DNA of 3,435 nucleotides from a virus (Duplodnaviria > Heunggongvirae > Uroviricota > Caudoviricetes), in IMG/VR virus record IMGVR_UViG_2778261688_000003; one strand, written 5' to 3'. The translations under genes and the position numbers were made by a program. Under the pieces are notes generated by a model, which worked only from the letters and a program-made list of their open reading frames with translations, did no database searches and was not told the DNA's origin. Shown here piece after piece: positions 1-3,435 of this stretch (the first letter of the stretch is position 1; each line of letters opens with the position of its first letter).

Positions 1-489
1 ATGTTGGATGTATTTACTCCATTGTTGAAACTTTTTGCTAACGAGCCACTCGAAAGACTTATGTATACGATTATCATTTTTGGTCTCACTCTCTGGCTGA
101 TACCGAAAGAGTTTACTGTCGCATTCAATGCTTATACTGAAATACCTTGGCTCTTTCAGATTATCGTTTTTGCCTTTTCTTTCGTGGTCGCCATTTCCTT
201 CTCAAGATTGCGAGCACATATTCAAAAGCATTATTCATTACTACCAGAGCAACGAGTATTGCTTCGTTTATCTGAGAAAGAAATCGCTGTATTTAAAGAT
301 TTCCTTAAAACAGGAAATCTTATTATCACTTCTCCTTGCCGTAACCCGGTTATGAAAAAATTAGAACGGAAGGGCATCATTCAACATCAGAGTGATAGCG
401 CAAACTGTTCTTATTATCTCGTCACCGAAAAATACTCCCATTTTATGAAGTTATTCTGGAACAGCAGGAGTAGACGTTTTAATCGTTAG
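1..489 (+). CDS. sieB: Superinfection exclusion protein B (SieB-like), 162 aa, small inner-membrane protein
   Basis: Complete ORF ATG(1)..TAG(487-489) from the six-frame track. Two hydrophobic helix-length segments (MYTIIIFGLTLWLIPKEF; IPWLFQIIVFAFSFVVAISF) followed by a charged C-terminal half. Size and sequence recalled as matching Rac prophage SieB; not verified by search. Confidence 0.8.
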   Translation: MLDVFTPLLKLFANEPLERLMYTIIIFGLTLWLIPKEFTVAFNAYTEIPWLFQIIVFAFSFVVAISFSRLRAHIQKHYSLLPEQRVLLRLSEKEIAVFKDFLKTGNLIITSPCRNPVMKKLERKGIIQHQSDSANCSYYLVTEKYSHFMKLFWNSRSRRFNR

Positions 490-641
490 CTTACTGTGTG
501 CTTCTCCAACCATCGGCGCGCACCAGTTTCGGTTTTAAATGTTTTGCTTTTGGTATACGTCATGGCAGTGAACGTTCCATCCTGGTTGGGGAACACGCCG
601 CACACCAGGGATTCGTTGTTGCCGAGGTCGATTTTTTGCAT
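486..641 (-). CDS. ydaF: Small prophage protein, 51 aa (YdaF-like), function unknown
   Basis: Hand translation of the minus strand: ATG at 641..639, TAA at 488..486, product MQKIDLGNNESLVCGVFPNQDGTFTAMTYTKSKTFKTETGARRWLEKHTVS. Below the size cut-off of the supplied ORF track. The 51-aa size and position between sieB and ydaG match the Rac gene order as I recall it. Only a weak SD (GAGA). Confidence 0.6.
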   Translation of the reverse strand: MQKIDLGNNESLVCGVFPNQDGTFTAMTYTKSKTFKTETGARRWLEKHTVS

Positions 642-651
642 TTTGCGAATC

Positions 652-786
652 TCACATCTTGTTGCTACGTATAGCGACTTCTGCCTGCCAGAGATCCCAG
701 TCGTTGCTGCGTAAAGCCTGCACAGCCTGGTTGTAAGTGATACCGCAACAATCCATCAAATACTGAACTACTTCGTAATGCACCAT
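652..786 (-). CDS. ydaG: Small prophage protein, 44 aa (YdaG-like), predicted single three-helix UBA-like domain
   Basis: Hand translation of the minus strand: ATG at 786..784, TGA at 654..652, product MVHYEVVQYLMDCCGITYNQAVQALRSNDWDLWQAEVAIRSNKM. Strong SD AGGGGAGAG (revcomp of 792-800) about 6 nt upstream of the ATG. Size and position match Rac ydaG as recalled. Confidence 0.7.
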   Translation of the reverse strand: MVHYEVVQYLMDCCGITYNQAVQALRSNDWDLWQAEVAIRSNKM

Positions 787-955
787 CTTATCTCTCCCCT
801 TAACGCCGGGTGGCGGAACTAACTGCTGCACTGCAAAATTTGAATCCCGCCGTCATGTTCATACGCCTCGGGCTGGCTACTTAACCCCTTACCACTGCCT
901 GGTAACTCGAAGTATTGCCCGGCGTTCTGTGGGGCGGGGTGGGTGGTATGCTGGA

Positions 956-984
956 ACTATAGGTAATGCCTAATTGATTGTCAA
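956..984 (-). promoter_or_regulatory. PL-like leftward sigma70 promoter: -35 TTGACA (984..979), 17-nt spacer, -10 TATAGT (961..956); predicted TSS near 949
   Basis: Read directly on the minus strand: consensus -35 hexamer and a 5/6 match -10 with optimal 17-nt spacing. It points toward ydaG-ydaF and is flanked or overlapped by two palindromic operator sites. Confidence 0.5.
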
Positions 985-997
985 TAGGCTATGCCTA
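960..997. promoter_or_regulatory. OL-like operator: two palindromic sites TAGGT-AAT-GCCTA (960-972) and TAGGC-TAT-GCCTA (985-997), centres 25 bp apart
   Basis: Same 5-3-5 palindrome family as the three sites between racR and ydaS. The sites sit within the promoter spacer and directly upstream of the -35, mirroring the OR arrangement. Confidence 0.5.
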
Positions 998-1094
998 ATG
1001 TTTTGAGCGTAACCTAATAGGTGATGGCGACAGCAGAAAGTGATGGGGGGGTTAAATAACGGAATCCAGGAGTTTTCCGTCAGACCATATAAGT

Positions 1095-1571
1095 TTAAGT
1101 TCCAGTTTTTGTGATGTTCTGGCTTTTCCGTTCAGATTCAAGAGCTTTCAGATACTTACCCACTTTCATTTCCATCGCTGCTATGTAGGCGCGAACATCG
1201 TGGTCAACCCAATCTGGTTCTGTAGCATTTCCAGATAACAGGAAAGCTACAATCGCTCTTATTTCATCAGAGGCTGCTTGATAAAGGTTGTTTATATCTA
1301 AAAGTTCACTTTTTGTATCTGAATTGGTGGGGGTTGGTATGGGGTATTCGTTAAGCCCCCAATGCTCTGGACCAACAACATCAGAAAAGAAACGCCATAA
1401 TTCTGGAAGTTTATCTTTACTTATAGAGCCTTTCTTAATCCAGTCATAAATTGATGGTGGTTGGACTTTAAAGTGGCGTGCGACCTCCGCCTTTGATTTG
1501 ACGGATCCCGATGCGATTTTTTTGTTAATGGCCTGCTCTATCGCTCGGCCTAAGTCTTTACCACTAAGCAT
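1095..1571 (-). CDS. racR: Prophage repressor RacR (CI-like HTH repressor), 158 aa
   Basis: ORF from the track, minus strand, ATG at 1571..1569, TAA at 1097..1095. SD AGGAG (revcomp of 1583-1587) 11 nt upstream. N-terminal HTH-like segment (KAEVARHFKVQPPSIYDWIKKG). Divergent from a Cro-like gene across an operator-rich intergenic region. Size and sequence match RacR as recalled. Confidence 0.88.
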   Translation of the reverse strand: MLSGKDLGRAIEQAINKKIASGSVKSKAEVARHFKVQPPSIYDWIKKGSISKDKLPELWRFFSDVVGPEHWGLNEYPIPTPTNSDTKSELLDINNLYQAASDEIRAIVAFLLSGNATEPDWVDHDVRAYIAAMEMKVGKYLKALESERKSQNITKTGT

Positions 1572-1593
1572 TGCTTAATATTCTCCTATGCGC

Positions 1594-1622
1594 ATTACAT
1601 TAGGCAATCCCTACCCTTACTG
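1594..1622 (-). promoter_or_regulatory. Candidate racR maintenance promoter (PRM-like): -10 TGTAAT (1599..1594) with a poor -35 region between operator sites 1 and 2
   Basis: 5/6 -10 hexamer on the minus strand about 23 nt upstream of the racR ATG, with no recognisable -35 (CAGTAA). This would fit an activator-dependent promoter with a very short leader, but it is weakly supported. Confidence 0.25.
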
Positions 1623-1664
1623 CATTAGGCACAGCCTATTGACAATTGCGTTAGGCGTCGCCTA
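1601..1664. promoter_or_regulatory. OR-like tripartite operator: TAGGC-AAT-CCCTA (1601-1613), TAGGC-ACA-GCCTA (1626-1638), TAGGC-GTC-GCCTA (1652-1664); centre spacing 25 and 26 bp
   Basis: Three 13-bp palindromes (5-3-5) read directly from the sequence. The racR-proximal site is the most degenerate (CCCTA half-site), analogous to a weak OR3-type site. Confidence 0.6.
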
Positions 1665-1668
1665 ATAT
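1639..1668 (+). promoter_or_regulatory. PR-like rightward sigma70 promoter for ydaS-ydaT: -35 TTGACA (1639-1644), 18-nt spacer, -10 TAATAT (1663-1668)
   Basis: Consensus -35 with a 4/6 -10 that retains T at -12, A at -11 and T at -7. Operator site 3 lies in the spacer and site 2 abuts the -35. ydaS SD GGAG (1683-1686) is 8 nt before ATG 1695. Confidence 0.55.
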
Positions 1669-1694
1669 TTCTGTGTGTTTTTGGAGTTCATTCG

Positions 1695-1991
1695 ATGAAA
1701 AAAGAGAACTATTCATTCAAGCAAGCTTGTGCTGTTGTCGGTGGGCAATCAGCAATGGCTAGGCTTTTAGGTGTATCACCTCCAAGCGTAAATCAATGGA
1801 TCAAAGGGGTACGTCAATTGCCTGCCGAGAGATGTCCAGCAATTGAACGTGCAACAAGAGGTGAGGTTCTGTGCGAAGAACTTCGTCCTGATATTGACTG
1901 GTCATATTTACGACGTTCGGCATGTTGTTCGCAGAATATGTCAGTGAAGCAACTAAATGACAGTAACAAATCCTCATTTGATCATACCTGA
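1695..1991 (+). CDS. ydaS: Cro-like HTH DNA-binding protein YdaS, 98 aa
   Basis: ORF from the track, ATG 1695 to TGA 1989-1991, good SD. First gene rightward of the repressor, in the Cro position. HTH-like segment (QSAMARLLGVSPPSVNQWIKG). Size matches Rac YdaS. Confidence 0.88.
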   Translation: MKKENYSFKQACAVVGGQSAMARLLGVSPPSVNQWIKGVRQLPAERCPAIERATRGEVLCEELRPDIDWSYLRRSACCSQNMSVKQLNDSNKSSFDHT

Positions 1992-2013
1992 AACATCAAG
2001 AGGCAAATGATTC

Positions 2014-2436
2014 ATGAAAATCAAGCATGAGCACATCGAATCAGTGTTGTTTGCCCTAGCAGCCGAAAAAGGGCAGGCATGGGTAGCCAATGCAATTACT
2101 GAAGAATATCTGCGCCAGGGGGGCGGCGAATTGCCCCTGGTTCCAGGCAAGGACTGGAACAATCAGCAGAATATCTATCACCGTTGGTTGAAAGGTGAAA
2201 CGAAAACGCAAAGAGAAAAAATTCAGAAGCTGATCCCAGCAATTCTGGCAATCCTTCCGCGCGAGCTGCGTCACCGACTCTGCATCTTCGATACCCTGGA
2301 ACGCCGTGCATTACTGGCGGCGCAGGAAGCGTTAAGTACGGCAATTGATGCGCATGATGATGCAGTCCAAGCCGTTTACCGGAAAGCGCATTTCAGCGGC
2401 GGCGGTTCTTCCGACGATTCTGTCATTGTTCATTAA
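2014..2436 (+). CDS. ydaT: YdaT, 140 aa, CII-position protein of the Rac early-right operon
   Basis: ORF from the track, ATG 2014 to TAA 2434-2436. SD AAGAGG (1998-2003) 10 nt upstream. Follows ydaS after a 22-nt gap. Size and sequence match Rac YdaT as recalled. Confidence 0.88.
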   Translation: MKIKHEHIESVLFALAAEKGQAWVANAITEEYLRQGGGELPLVPGKDWNNQQNIYHRWLKGETKTQREKIQKLIPAILAILPRELRHRLCIFDTLERRALLAAQEALSTAIDAHDDAVQAVYRKAHFSGGGSSDDSVIVH

Positions 2437-2499
2437 GCAAAAGTTTCCATGCTGTTTGTGCTTATTCTAAGCCACCGGGCAGCATCATACGGGGCAATT

Positions 2500-3435
2500 A
2501 TGGCCGCATTACCATACATGCAACTGTACATAGCTGATTACCTGGCTGACACCATGCATTTGTCAGCAGAGGAGCATGGTGCGTATTTGTTGCTGATGTT
2601 CAATTACTGGCAAACAGGAAAGCCAATACCTAAAAACAGGCTGGCAAAAATTGCCCGTCTGACTAACGAGCGATGGGCTGATGTTGAACCATCCTTGCAG
2701 GAGTTTTTTTGCGATAACGGCGAGGAATGGGTGCATCTTCGGATTGAGGAAGATCTGGCATCAGTCAGGGAAAAATTAACCAAAAAATCAGCCGCAGGAA
2801 AAGCATCTGTTCAGGCCAGAAGAAGCAGAAAGGAAGCAGATGTTCAAACAAAACAAGAGAGAAATTTAACAGGTGTTCAAACAGATGTTGAAGTGGTGTT
2901 TGAACATGATGTCAACACAAAGGCAACTAATAAAGATACAGATAAAGATCTAAAAACAGATCCCCCCCTAAATCCCCCCCGGGGGAATCGAGGTGTCAAA
3001 AAGTTTGACCCTCTGGATATTACTTTGCCGAACTGGATTTCTGTCTCGCTTTGGCGTGAGTGGGTTGAATTTCGCCAGGCATTGCGAAAACCGATTCGAA
3101 CGGAGCAGGGCGCTAACGGGGCGATAAGCGGTCGCGAGACGTTACGGGCTCTGGAGGCTAAAACCGGTGCATCAAGGTATTACATAAGCACTCTCGCCAG
3201 AGAACTAGTCGCCAGTGGTGATGTTTACAATTCAGGCTACGGATTATTCCCGTCTGAGCAGGCGCGTAAAGACTGGCAAAACGCCCGCAAAAAACTATCA
3301 AGGACAAAGGTGAAGAAACCGGTTGTGGTTGATCCTGACCTTATCTGGTCATTACCAGACGGAGAAATACGCCGTTACGACAGGCGTCTGAACATAATCT
3401 GTCGCGAGTGCCTGAAGAGTGAAGTTATGCAGTGA
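2500..3435 (+). CDS. ydaU: YdaU-like DUF1376-family prophage protein (putative replication-initiator position), ending at the window edge with TGA
   Basis: Long ORF 2449..3435 in the track. The start is placed at ATG 2500 (M18) because the sequence MAALPYMQLYIADYLADT... looks like the conserved family N-terminus and a G-rich SD-like element (GGGG 2491-2494) precedes it. ATG 2449 and ATG 2518 lack an SD. Start choice is uncertain. Confidence 0.75.
   Translation: MAALPYMQLYIADYLADTMHLSAEEHGAYLLLMFNYWQTGKPIPKNRLAKIARLTNERWADVEPSLQEFFCDNGEEWVHLRIEEDLASVREKLTKKSAAGKASVQARRSRKEADVQTKQERNLTGVQTDVEVVFEHDVNTKATNKDTDKDLKTDPPLNPPRGNRGVKKFDPLDITLPNWISVSLWREWVEFRQALRKPIRTEQGANGAISGRETLRALEAKTGASRYYISTLARELVASGDVYNSGYGLFPSEQARKDWQNARKKLSRTKVKKPVVVDPDLIWSLPDGEIRRYDRRLNIICRECLKSEVMQ
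2837..2919. repeat. Iteron-like cluster inside ydaU: TGTTCAAACA direct copies (2841-2850, 2874-2883), inverted copy TGTTTGAACA (2897-2906), CAGATGTT (2837-2844, 2882-2889), degenerate copy GATGTCAACA (2908-2917)
   Basis: Read directly from the sequence. Followed by an A-rich stretch (2920-2960) and two C7 tracts. Position in the linker of the putative initiator gene resembles the arrangement of lambda ori inside gene O. Confidence 0.4.

Follow-up and report, generated by a model that had tools for sequence, protein, structure and literature searches.

The sieB gene of the Rac prophage is best understood as an accessory gene that is expressed from the prophage and sits, on the opposite strand, inside the leftward operon controlled by RacR; derepression of this operon would bring antisense transcription over sieB and, with it, the shut-off or re-programming of SieB. 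The probability of this reading is estimated at roughly 60%. The anatomy of the region and its conservation are read directly from the DNA: sieB lies immediately downstream of the first genes of the leftward operon, as it does in lambda, P22 and further relatives. The RacR-dependent induction of the minus-strand genes flanking sieB is an experimental fact taken from published transcriptomes. The consequences for sieB itself, for a sas RNA of Rac and for an Esc product are proposed by homology with P22.

The window, i.e. the whole stretch of 3,435 nt that was analysed, is the immunity region of the cryptic and defective prophage Rac. Its positions 1-3126 are identical to the genome of E. coli K-12 MG1655, position 1 being the first base of the sieB start codon (genome position 1418671). 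The sieB reading frame (1-489, plus strand; b1353, 1418671-1419159, plus strand) starts with ATG, encodes 162 amino acids and faces ydaF (486-641, minus strand; b4527, 1419156-1419311, minus strand), an ATG reading frame of 51 amino acids that is the second gene of the leftward operon. The first gene of this operon is ydaG (652-786, minus strand, 44 amino acids), recognized from the annotation and from PHROG 14709 (E 2.4e-33). It is followed, in the direction of increasing coordinates, by racR, which encodes the prophage repressor (1095-1571, minus strand; reading frame and annotation), and then by the plus-strand genes ydaS (1695-1991) and ydaT (2014-2436) and a reading frame derived from ydaU (2449-3435).

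SieB is a member of Pfam family PF14163 (109.4 bits for a cut-off of 26, E 1.5e-31, residues 21-160) and matches PHROG 6399 (E 5.3e-70), which belongs to the class ‘moron’. YdaF contains the DUF1391 domain (PF07151, E 1.9e-28) and also matches PHROG 751, while YdaG displays a weak UBA-like Pfam match. The G+C content of sieB is low, at about 37-40%, compared with 47-50% for the adjoining ydaF and ydaG. A scan of the window with Rfam returned a chance match to a CRISPR repeat only (E 0.26).

The plus strand between positions 479 and 492 reads AATCGTTAGCTTAC. The stop codon of sieB (TAG, 487-489) and that of ydaF (TAA, the complement of 486-488, seen as TTA on the plus strand) have positions 487-488 in common, and the two coding sequences converge in an overlap of 4 nt (486-489; TTAG on the plus strand, CTAA on the minus strand) that leaves zero intergenic DNA. 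The overlap of the two stop codons pointed out in the preliminary description is therefore real, being seen in the sequence, in the reading frames and in the annotation of MG1655; other E. coli genomes have sieB and ydaF annotated in the same way. Since the Pfam matches of both SieB and YdaF end 2-3 residues before the C-terminus, the overlap is confined to the stop codons. No intrinsic terminator is found around the junction on either strand. Shuffled sequences fold as well as the junction does, the z-scores being −0.77 for positions 470-570 on the plus strand and +0.22 for positions 400-500 on the minus strand. In itself, a TTAG/CTAA overlap is unremarkable, because complementary stop codons favour convergent overlaps of this kind. 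It is the conservation of where sieB lies and which way it points, and not the overlap, that goes beyond chance.

Leftward transcription can be traced to a P_L-like early promoter that reads from 984 to 956 on the minus strand, with a −35 element TTGACA at 984-979, a spacer of 17 nt and a −10 element TATAGT at 961-956. Its existence had been predicted in the preliminary description, and it is upheld by 11 of 12 matches to the consensus and by RacR-type operators alongside it; the predicted transcription start is near position 949. Only two sites in the window display at least 10 of 12 promoter matches, namely this promoter and the rightward ydaS promoter (1639-1668, plus strand, TTGACA-18-TAATAT). 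The operators correspond to a 13-bp palindrome, TAGGC-N3-GCCTA, six copies of which are present in 13 kb of Rac when up to two mismatches are allowed. Two of these copies (960-972 and 985-997) bracket the leftward promoter, overlapping its −10 element and flanking its −35 element. The four others occur in the racR-ydaS region, where they form, together with the ydaS promoter, the right operator/promoter region (1565-1668). No RacR-type operator was found near kilR or KilS in the same scan of 13 kb with up to two mismatches. A version of the pattern with a 4-nt spacer gave chance matches only, as opposed to the clustered sites obtained with the 3-nt spacer. The leftward and rightward promoter regions are mirror images of each other within a 35-nt inverted repeat. 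[quoted passage not shown]

From this promoter, transcription very probably crosses sieB in the antisense orientation, as indicated by terminator scans and by the induction of the minus-strand genes that flank sieB. A pattern scan for terminator-like sites over positions 1-984 gave none on either strand, and a fold-based scan of the minus strand inside sieB gave a single weak candidate at position 227 (dG −9.2), in which the U-run is located within the stem. The first strong intrinsic terminator of the minus strand is located 261 nt to the left of the window (dG −19.5, UUUUU) and coincides with the 3′ end of KilS. Where the leftward transcript lies antisense to sieB (1-485, minus strand), it is untranslated and without intrinsic terminator. 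Its C/G ratio is about 1 or less in 78-nt bins, i.e. it is neither C-rich nor G-poor, and hence it offers no obvious Rho-loading site; such composition is weak evidence, however, and Rho-dependent termination may occur there. This stretch also contains a very stable hairpin at 190-285, with z-scores of −3.66 for the minus and −2.44 for the plus strand. It is absent from the relatives at 77% and 69% identity and is probably incidental.

Experimental data on the flanking genes come from studies in which RacR was depleted. When racR is silenced by a foreign C protein, ydaF, ydaG, ydaE and racC are up-regulated about 40-fold and kilR more than 70-fold (PMC6765115), and CRISPRi against racR induces ydaG, kilR, ydaE, racC, recE, recT and further leftward genes jointly (10.64898/2026.09.06.749655). 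With lowered RacR, minus-strand genes on both sides of sieB, i.e. ydaG and ydaF on one side and kilR, ydaE, racC and recET on the other, increase 40- to 100-fold; sieB is not mentioned in the main text of these transcriptome papers. Given the joint leftward induction and the lack of an operator near kilR or KilS, a single RacR-controlled transcript is the simplest reading. The claim that the leftward transcript must run antisense through sieB unless terminated is thereby sustained in its premises, since no stop is predicted before sieB and the genes on either side are induced, while the crossing itself is deduced from these observations.

The untranslated stretch between the ydaF stop codon and kilR amounts to about 930 nt, and long untranslated RNA normally invites Rho-dependent termination. 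Rho could accordingly end the leftward transcript soon after ydaF, in which case kilR, ydaE, racC and recET would be expressed from separate promoters, for example from the start of KilS. KilS is indeed reported to be transcribed independently, from its own start, so that part of the kilR signal may originate elsewhere than at the leftward promoter. The rise of kilR exceeds that of ydaF (>70-fold versus ~40-fold; PMC6765115), and Rac is a known hotspot of silencing by Rho and NusG (PMC4150792; PMC5793797). This explanation nevertheless leaves the RacR dependence of a separate promoter unaccounted for, in view of the operator-free surroundings of KilS and kilR, and it finds little to build on in the C/G ratio of the antisense RNA. 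It also conflicts with the accepted model of why defects in Rho and NusG are toxic, in which read-through from racR reaches kilR across this very region unless Rho stops it in racR (PMC4150792; PMC5793797). A Rho-dependent terminator within racR, called trac, limits this read-through from the racR promoter toward kilR (PMC4150792), and the model requires a transcript path across sieB. An early stop by Rho is consequently considered very improbable, and a leftward transcript that continues through sieB is preferred.

The position of sieB was compared among diverse loci obtained from a protein search, contig look-ups and annotated phage records. Searches starting from the Rac protein were of narrow reach: a tblastn search of phage genomes with Rac SieB as the query yielded three Rac-like phages only, and a locus search based on an alignment of Rac, lambda and P22 SieB found 80 loci in viral contigs, all 99-100% identical to Rac SieB, and, in species genomes, mostly lambda control DNA contaminating unrelated assemblies. 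In the 8 lineages examined, Rac included, sieB is without exception on the strand opposite to the leftward operon and convergent with it. The distance between the sieB stop codon and the converging gene varies widely. It is −4 nt in Rac (ydaF, DUF1391), −11 nt in a Rac-like prophage with a SieB 77% identical to that of Rac (a DUF1391 gene), 0 nt in lambda (sieB at 34482-35036 on the plus strand, N at 35037-35438 on the minus strand), +15 nt in HK140 (an N-like gene), +20 nt in P22 (gene 24), +30 nt in HK620 (hkaQ, then N), +167 nt in a locus with a SieB 34% identical to that of Rac (a minus-strand gene, then a repressor) and +406 nt in a Yersinia prophage (a CI-like repressor gene). The position of sieB is thus a family trait, while the size of the overlap is not conserved, and gaps ranging from −11 to +406 nt argue that the stop-codon overlap of Rac is incidental. 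In seven of the eight lineages sieB is the sole gene on its strand; the exception is the 34%-identical locus, where two genes of the same strand precede it. The 77%-identical Rac-like prophage has a leftward promoter (TTGACA-16-TATTAT) at the equivalent place and is likewise devoid of a terminator.

Variable overlap is also what neutral packing would leave behind, the overlap and the read-through being by-products of the insertion of a low-G+C gene into a compact operon, with no selected effect on sieB in Rac. The moron-like G+C content and PHROG class of sieB conform to this explanation, as do the absence of special structure at the junction and the commonness of overlapping convergent transcripts (165 pairs in MG1655; PMC12288877). 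It does not readily account for an orientation and a position of sieB that are conserved down to 34% protein identity, nor for a conserved leader whose P22 counterpart codes for a known antisense regulator. Taken together, orientation, position and leader favour a function at the level of the sieB family, and a purely neutral origin of the layout appears unlikely.

The regulator in question is best described in phage P22. In the P22 record (NC_002371), the sieB promoter is annotated at 29690-29720, the start of sieB RNA at 29727 and the sieB ATG at 29758; esc starts 72 nt inside sieB, at Met25, and is annotated as a safeguard of P22 against its own SieB. On the P_L strand lies the antisense RNA sas, which extends from sieB ATG+4 to −122 (AF217253, 11387-11513). 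Passages in PMC12197685, PMC13397905 and PMC7067206, which cite Ranade and Poteete 1993, describe how sas switches the translation of sieB from SieB to the inhibitor Esc; the role ascribed to the switch is that a phage in the course of development is shielded from the abortive-infection protein that it encodes itself. In P22, cells are reported to die when this antisense transcription is prevented. The P22 sieB promoter is weak, with a −35 element TGTACC and a long spacer. No convincing sas promoter was seen within the first sieB codons of P22, and the near-identity of lambda and P22 upstream of the sieB ATG gives way to divergence directly after it, which suggests that sas is processed from a longer leftward transcript. 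The sas RNA is made by the superinfecting or developing phage and is not known to be made by the prophage. The antisense logic of sieB, esc and sas in P22 was reportedly described by Ranade and Poteete in 1993.

The sas-coding leader is kept in Rac of K-12, directly upstream of the sieB start codon (window positions −124 to +5). Its elements occur in the same order in Rac, its 77% relative, lambda, P22, HK620, the Yersinia prophage and the 34% relative, and comprise a pair of TACCCCTACAG-type repeats spaced by about 35 nt and, farther upstream, two interleaved stems. In Rac, the leader includes the invariant core TACCCCTA, a second repeat and the two interleaved stems; in K-12, the stems span −105 to −69, and the repeats are found at −60 and −25. 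In P22, one repeat is located at the −35 region and the other at the RNA start. On the minus strand, i.e. the strand of sas, the stems can be arranged into an H-type pseudoknot (S1 ACCAC/GTGGT, S2 GCCTG/CAGGC, with an A-rich third loop), and this holds for 11/11 of the sequence variants collected. Compensatory changes are observed in both stems, from U.A to C.G in S2 of Rac and from A.U to U.A in S1 of the 34% relative. The G.U pairs that are valid on one strand only fall on the minus strand in two variants and on the other strand in one. This body of data is suggestive, without being proof, of a conserved pseudoknot in a sas-like RNA.

The coding sequence offers a counterpart to the start of esc. 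An in-frame internal ATG of Rac sieB (Met21; 61-63, plus strand) aligns with the first Met of the lambda MYM motif, and Met25 of P22, where esc starts, aligns two residues farther downstream, with the second Met. Upstream of Met21 is a weak ribosome-binding site, GAAAGA. By its position, Met21 may be regarded as a candidate start of an Esc-like product. KilS (window positions −168 to −265) was considered as the sas homologue of Rac and discarded, as it begins some 45 nt beyond the stretch equivalent to sas (−124 to +5) and resembles DicF; its 3′ part matches the DicF model with 39.1 bits (E 1.3e-6), which is below the Rfam gathering score of 48 bits.

The likeness between Rac and P22 thus involves a homologous SieB (PF14163), a sieB gene opposite the P_L operon and convergent on the first early gene, and a leader that coincides in P22 with sas RNA and with the annotated promoter and start of sieB, and that is conserved in Rac. 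The two SieB proteins share 19% identity. The systems differ in the converging gene and its distance, P22 having gene 24, an antiterminator, at +20 nt and Rac having ydaF (DUF1391) at −4 nt, and in their nature, P22 being a phage and Rac a defective prophage. They also differ in that the translational switch by sas and Esc is described for P22 and is at most putative in Rac.

Lambda has the same arrangement as Rac, in which operators and P_L are followed by an early gene and then by a convergent sieB, with adjacent stop codons. Lambda and Rac SieB share 28% identity and an N-terminal NEPLER-MY motif. Lambda-type phages have, in addition, N and nutL, and the terminator tL1 on the minus strand in the 5′ part of sieB (according to the annotation of HK620). 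In Rac, no N-like domain was detected in YdaF or YdaG with Pfam and PHROGs, and by eye the two proteins are without an arginine-rich stretch. A tL1-like terminator was also looked for, and the minus strand of positions 1-485 contains no hairpin followed by a U-run. Rac therefore departs from the antitermination circuit of lambda and HK620.

At the transcript level, sieB-ydaF has been published as one of 165 convergent excludons of MG1655, the criterion being that the transcripts of the pair overlap in 50% or more of 58 transcriptomes (ExcludonFinder, PMC12288877). The listing rests on coverage, and mutual exclusion of sieB and ydaF is no part of it; with a coding overlap of 4 nt, any two full-length sieB and ydaF mRNAs would qualify. 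It has bearing on a reversed scenario, in which the unterminated transcript of sieB would extend, as antisense RNA, across ydaF and ydaG and reach the leftward promoter, helping to keep leaky leftward transcription and the toxic kilR low. The plus strand has no intrinsic terminator after sieB until an operator hairpin at 985-997, which is followed by TGTTTTGA; judging from P22, it is sieB, of the two genes, that should be active in the lysogen, and the excludon was scored in half or more of 58 ordinary transcriptomes, where Rac is presumably repressed. By the same homology, however, the sieB promoter would be weak, with the −35 element and long spacer of its P22 counterpart, and sieB RNA is untranslated past its stop codon, where Rho may end it. 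RacR and Rho-dependent termination are, moreover, silencers already demonstrated or accepted (PMC4150792; PMC5700373). Interference in this direction is therefore held to be improbable, and antisense transcription from the leftward promoter over sieB is the direction retained.

The preferred mechanism would operate as follows. As long as the prophage is repressed, transcription of sieB would depend on a weak promoter of its own, placed just to the left of the window by homology with the P22 promoter. Upon loss of RacR, the near-consensus leftward promoter (984 to 956) would fire, and its transcript would pass through ydaG and ydaF and then through all of sieB in antisense without meeting a terminator. 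It would next cross the conserved leader of sieB, which corresponds to the sas-coding stretch of P22, and go on to the KilS terminator, kilR, ydaE, racC and recET. SieB synthesis would thereby be turned off or re-programmed, either through collision of polymerases or through pairing of sense and antisense RNAs. The most specific route would be that of a sas-like RNA that masks the sieB ribosome-binding site; in P22, SieB is blocked in this way and the shorter Esc is still made.

A broader proposal assigns several purposes to the leftward transcript, which would supply a sas-like RNA with the conserved pseudoknot as its 3′ domain and a switch from SieB to an Esc-like product (Met21), and then the DicF-like KilS and kilR. 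The model for its distal part is the dicB operon of Qin (P_dicB - ydfABC - dicF - dicB), a repressor-controlled early operon in which a DicF-type RNA precedes a division inhibitor; Rac is likened to it by description, with a leftward path that leads to the DicF-like KilS, outside the window, and then to kilR. This extension is tentative, and more doubtful than probable. Neither the pseudoknot nor the relation between KilS and DicF was mentioned earlier in the literature surveyed, although no search was targeted at either.

The preliminary description had gone on to suggest that transcriptional interference couples the expression of sieB to the repressed state. The chain of reasoning is plausible and largely consistent with the evidence, but the documented control of the family is post-transcriptional and takes place at the 5′ end of sieB. 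This control relies on RNA pairing that changes the protein translated, and differs from simple promoter interference at the 3′ overlap. Rac is defective, and the selective pressure to protect itself in a lytic cycle may have weakened.

The layout of sieB in Rac is real but ordinary, being the arrangement usually described for sieB in lambda-like phages. The overlap with ydaF figures in the reference annotation, the gene pair is a published excludon (PMC12288877), and P22 provides a described precedent for the antisense logic. In practical terms, unstranded reads over sieB after loss of RacR are probably derived from the opposite strand, which matters for the interpretation of Rac transcriptomes. 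If the proposed mechanism is true, the sas/Esc switch of P22 would be extended to SieB proteins of a remote branch, which would be a useful confirmation more than a surprise. If antisense control operates in Rac, loss of RacR would be tied to the silencing or re-programming of an abortive-infection protein that a cryptic prophage contributes to the principal laboratory strain of E. coli.

Window positions 977-1011 and 1612-1646 form a 35-nt inverted repeat (83% complementary), by which the two promoter-operator regions, leftward and rightward, mirror each other across racR, in a layout that resembles the O_L/P_L and O_R/P_R regions of lambda. On the plus strand, the sole terminator-like element beyond sieB falls within the first arm of this repeat, at 985-997, where the predicted operator palindrome TAGGCTATGCCTA is followed by ATGTTTTGA. 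Since no other such element is encountered before it, sieB transcripts may extend as far as the leftward promoter, running antisense through ydaF and ydaG. The product of the latter gene (652-786, minus strand; 44 aa) matches UBA-like domain models weakly, narrowly exceeding the cut-off for UBA_4 (24.1 bits versus 21.8), and is devoid of an arginine-rich N-like motif.

At its 5′ side, sieB is preceded by a leader that corresponds to the sas-coding stretch, sas being the P22 antisense RNA to the 5′ end of sieB, assigned to Rac by homology. This leader lies outside the window, in the K-12 flank, at window coordinates -124 to +5 (6547-6676 of the K-12 locus L001). It is kept in Rac, lambda, P22, HK620, a Yersinia prophage and a locus whose SieB is only 34% identical, and comprises two TACCCCTACAG repeats together with two interleaved stems. 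In all 11 variants, the stems are able to pair as an H-type pseudoknot on the minus strand, the third loop being A-rich. Within sieB itself, an imperfect inverted repeat at 190-285 gives a long hairpin on both strands (minus strand, -32.8 kcal/mol, z -3.66; plus strand, z -2.44). This hairpin is probably incidental, as it was sought in the 77% and 69% relatives and is present in neither.

Lambda-type sieB was also encountered within genome assemblies of unrelated taxa (loci L091-L113), including Paenibacillus, Kitasatospora, Bradyrhizobium, Capnocytophaga and Helicobacter. Several of these loci are located on contigs of ∼48 kb or on tiny contigs, and the assemblies are almost certainly contaminated by lambda control DNA.

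At the other end of the window, 1801 bp of full-length Rac genomes are missing at 3126/3127, namely the 3′ part of ydaU, ydaV, a gene with DUF1627 and the 5′ part of one with DUF977. In the resulting ORF (2449-3435; 328 aa), what is left of the DUF977 gene, its 3′ part, continues the reading frame of ydaU (DUF1376). K-12 and the window part company at this same point, and all 15 E. coli genomes among the matches listed align to the window as two pieces. The junction shows no microhomology and represents either a deletion that is rare or a join that is artificial or arose in assembly.

Left of the sieB leader, a small RNA, KilS, is annotated, and its 3′ part (L001 6411-6466, window -260 to -205, minus strand) aligns with the Rfam DicF model over the full length of the model, with 39.1 bits (E 1.3e-6) against a gathering score of 48 that is not reached. 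A strong intrinsic terminator, with a dG of -19.5, closes this part. The adjoining kilR 5′ UTR (L001 6223-6409) weakly matches STnc100 (28 bits). Judging from the DicF match, Rac would have a DicF-like RNA immediately 5′ of kilR, the gene of an FtsZ inhibitor, much as dicF is found upstream of dicB in Qin.
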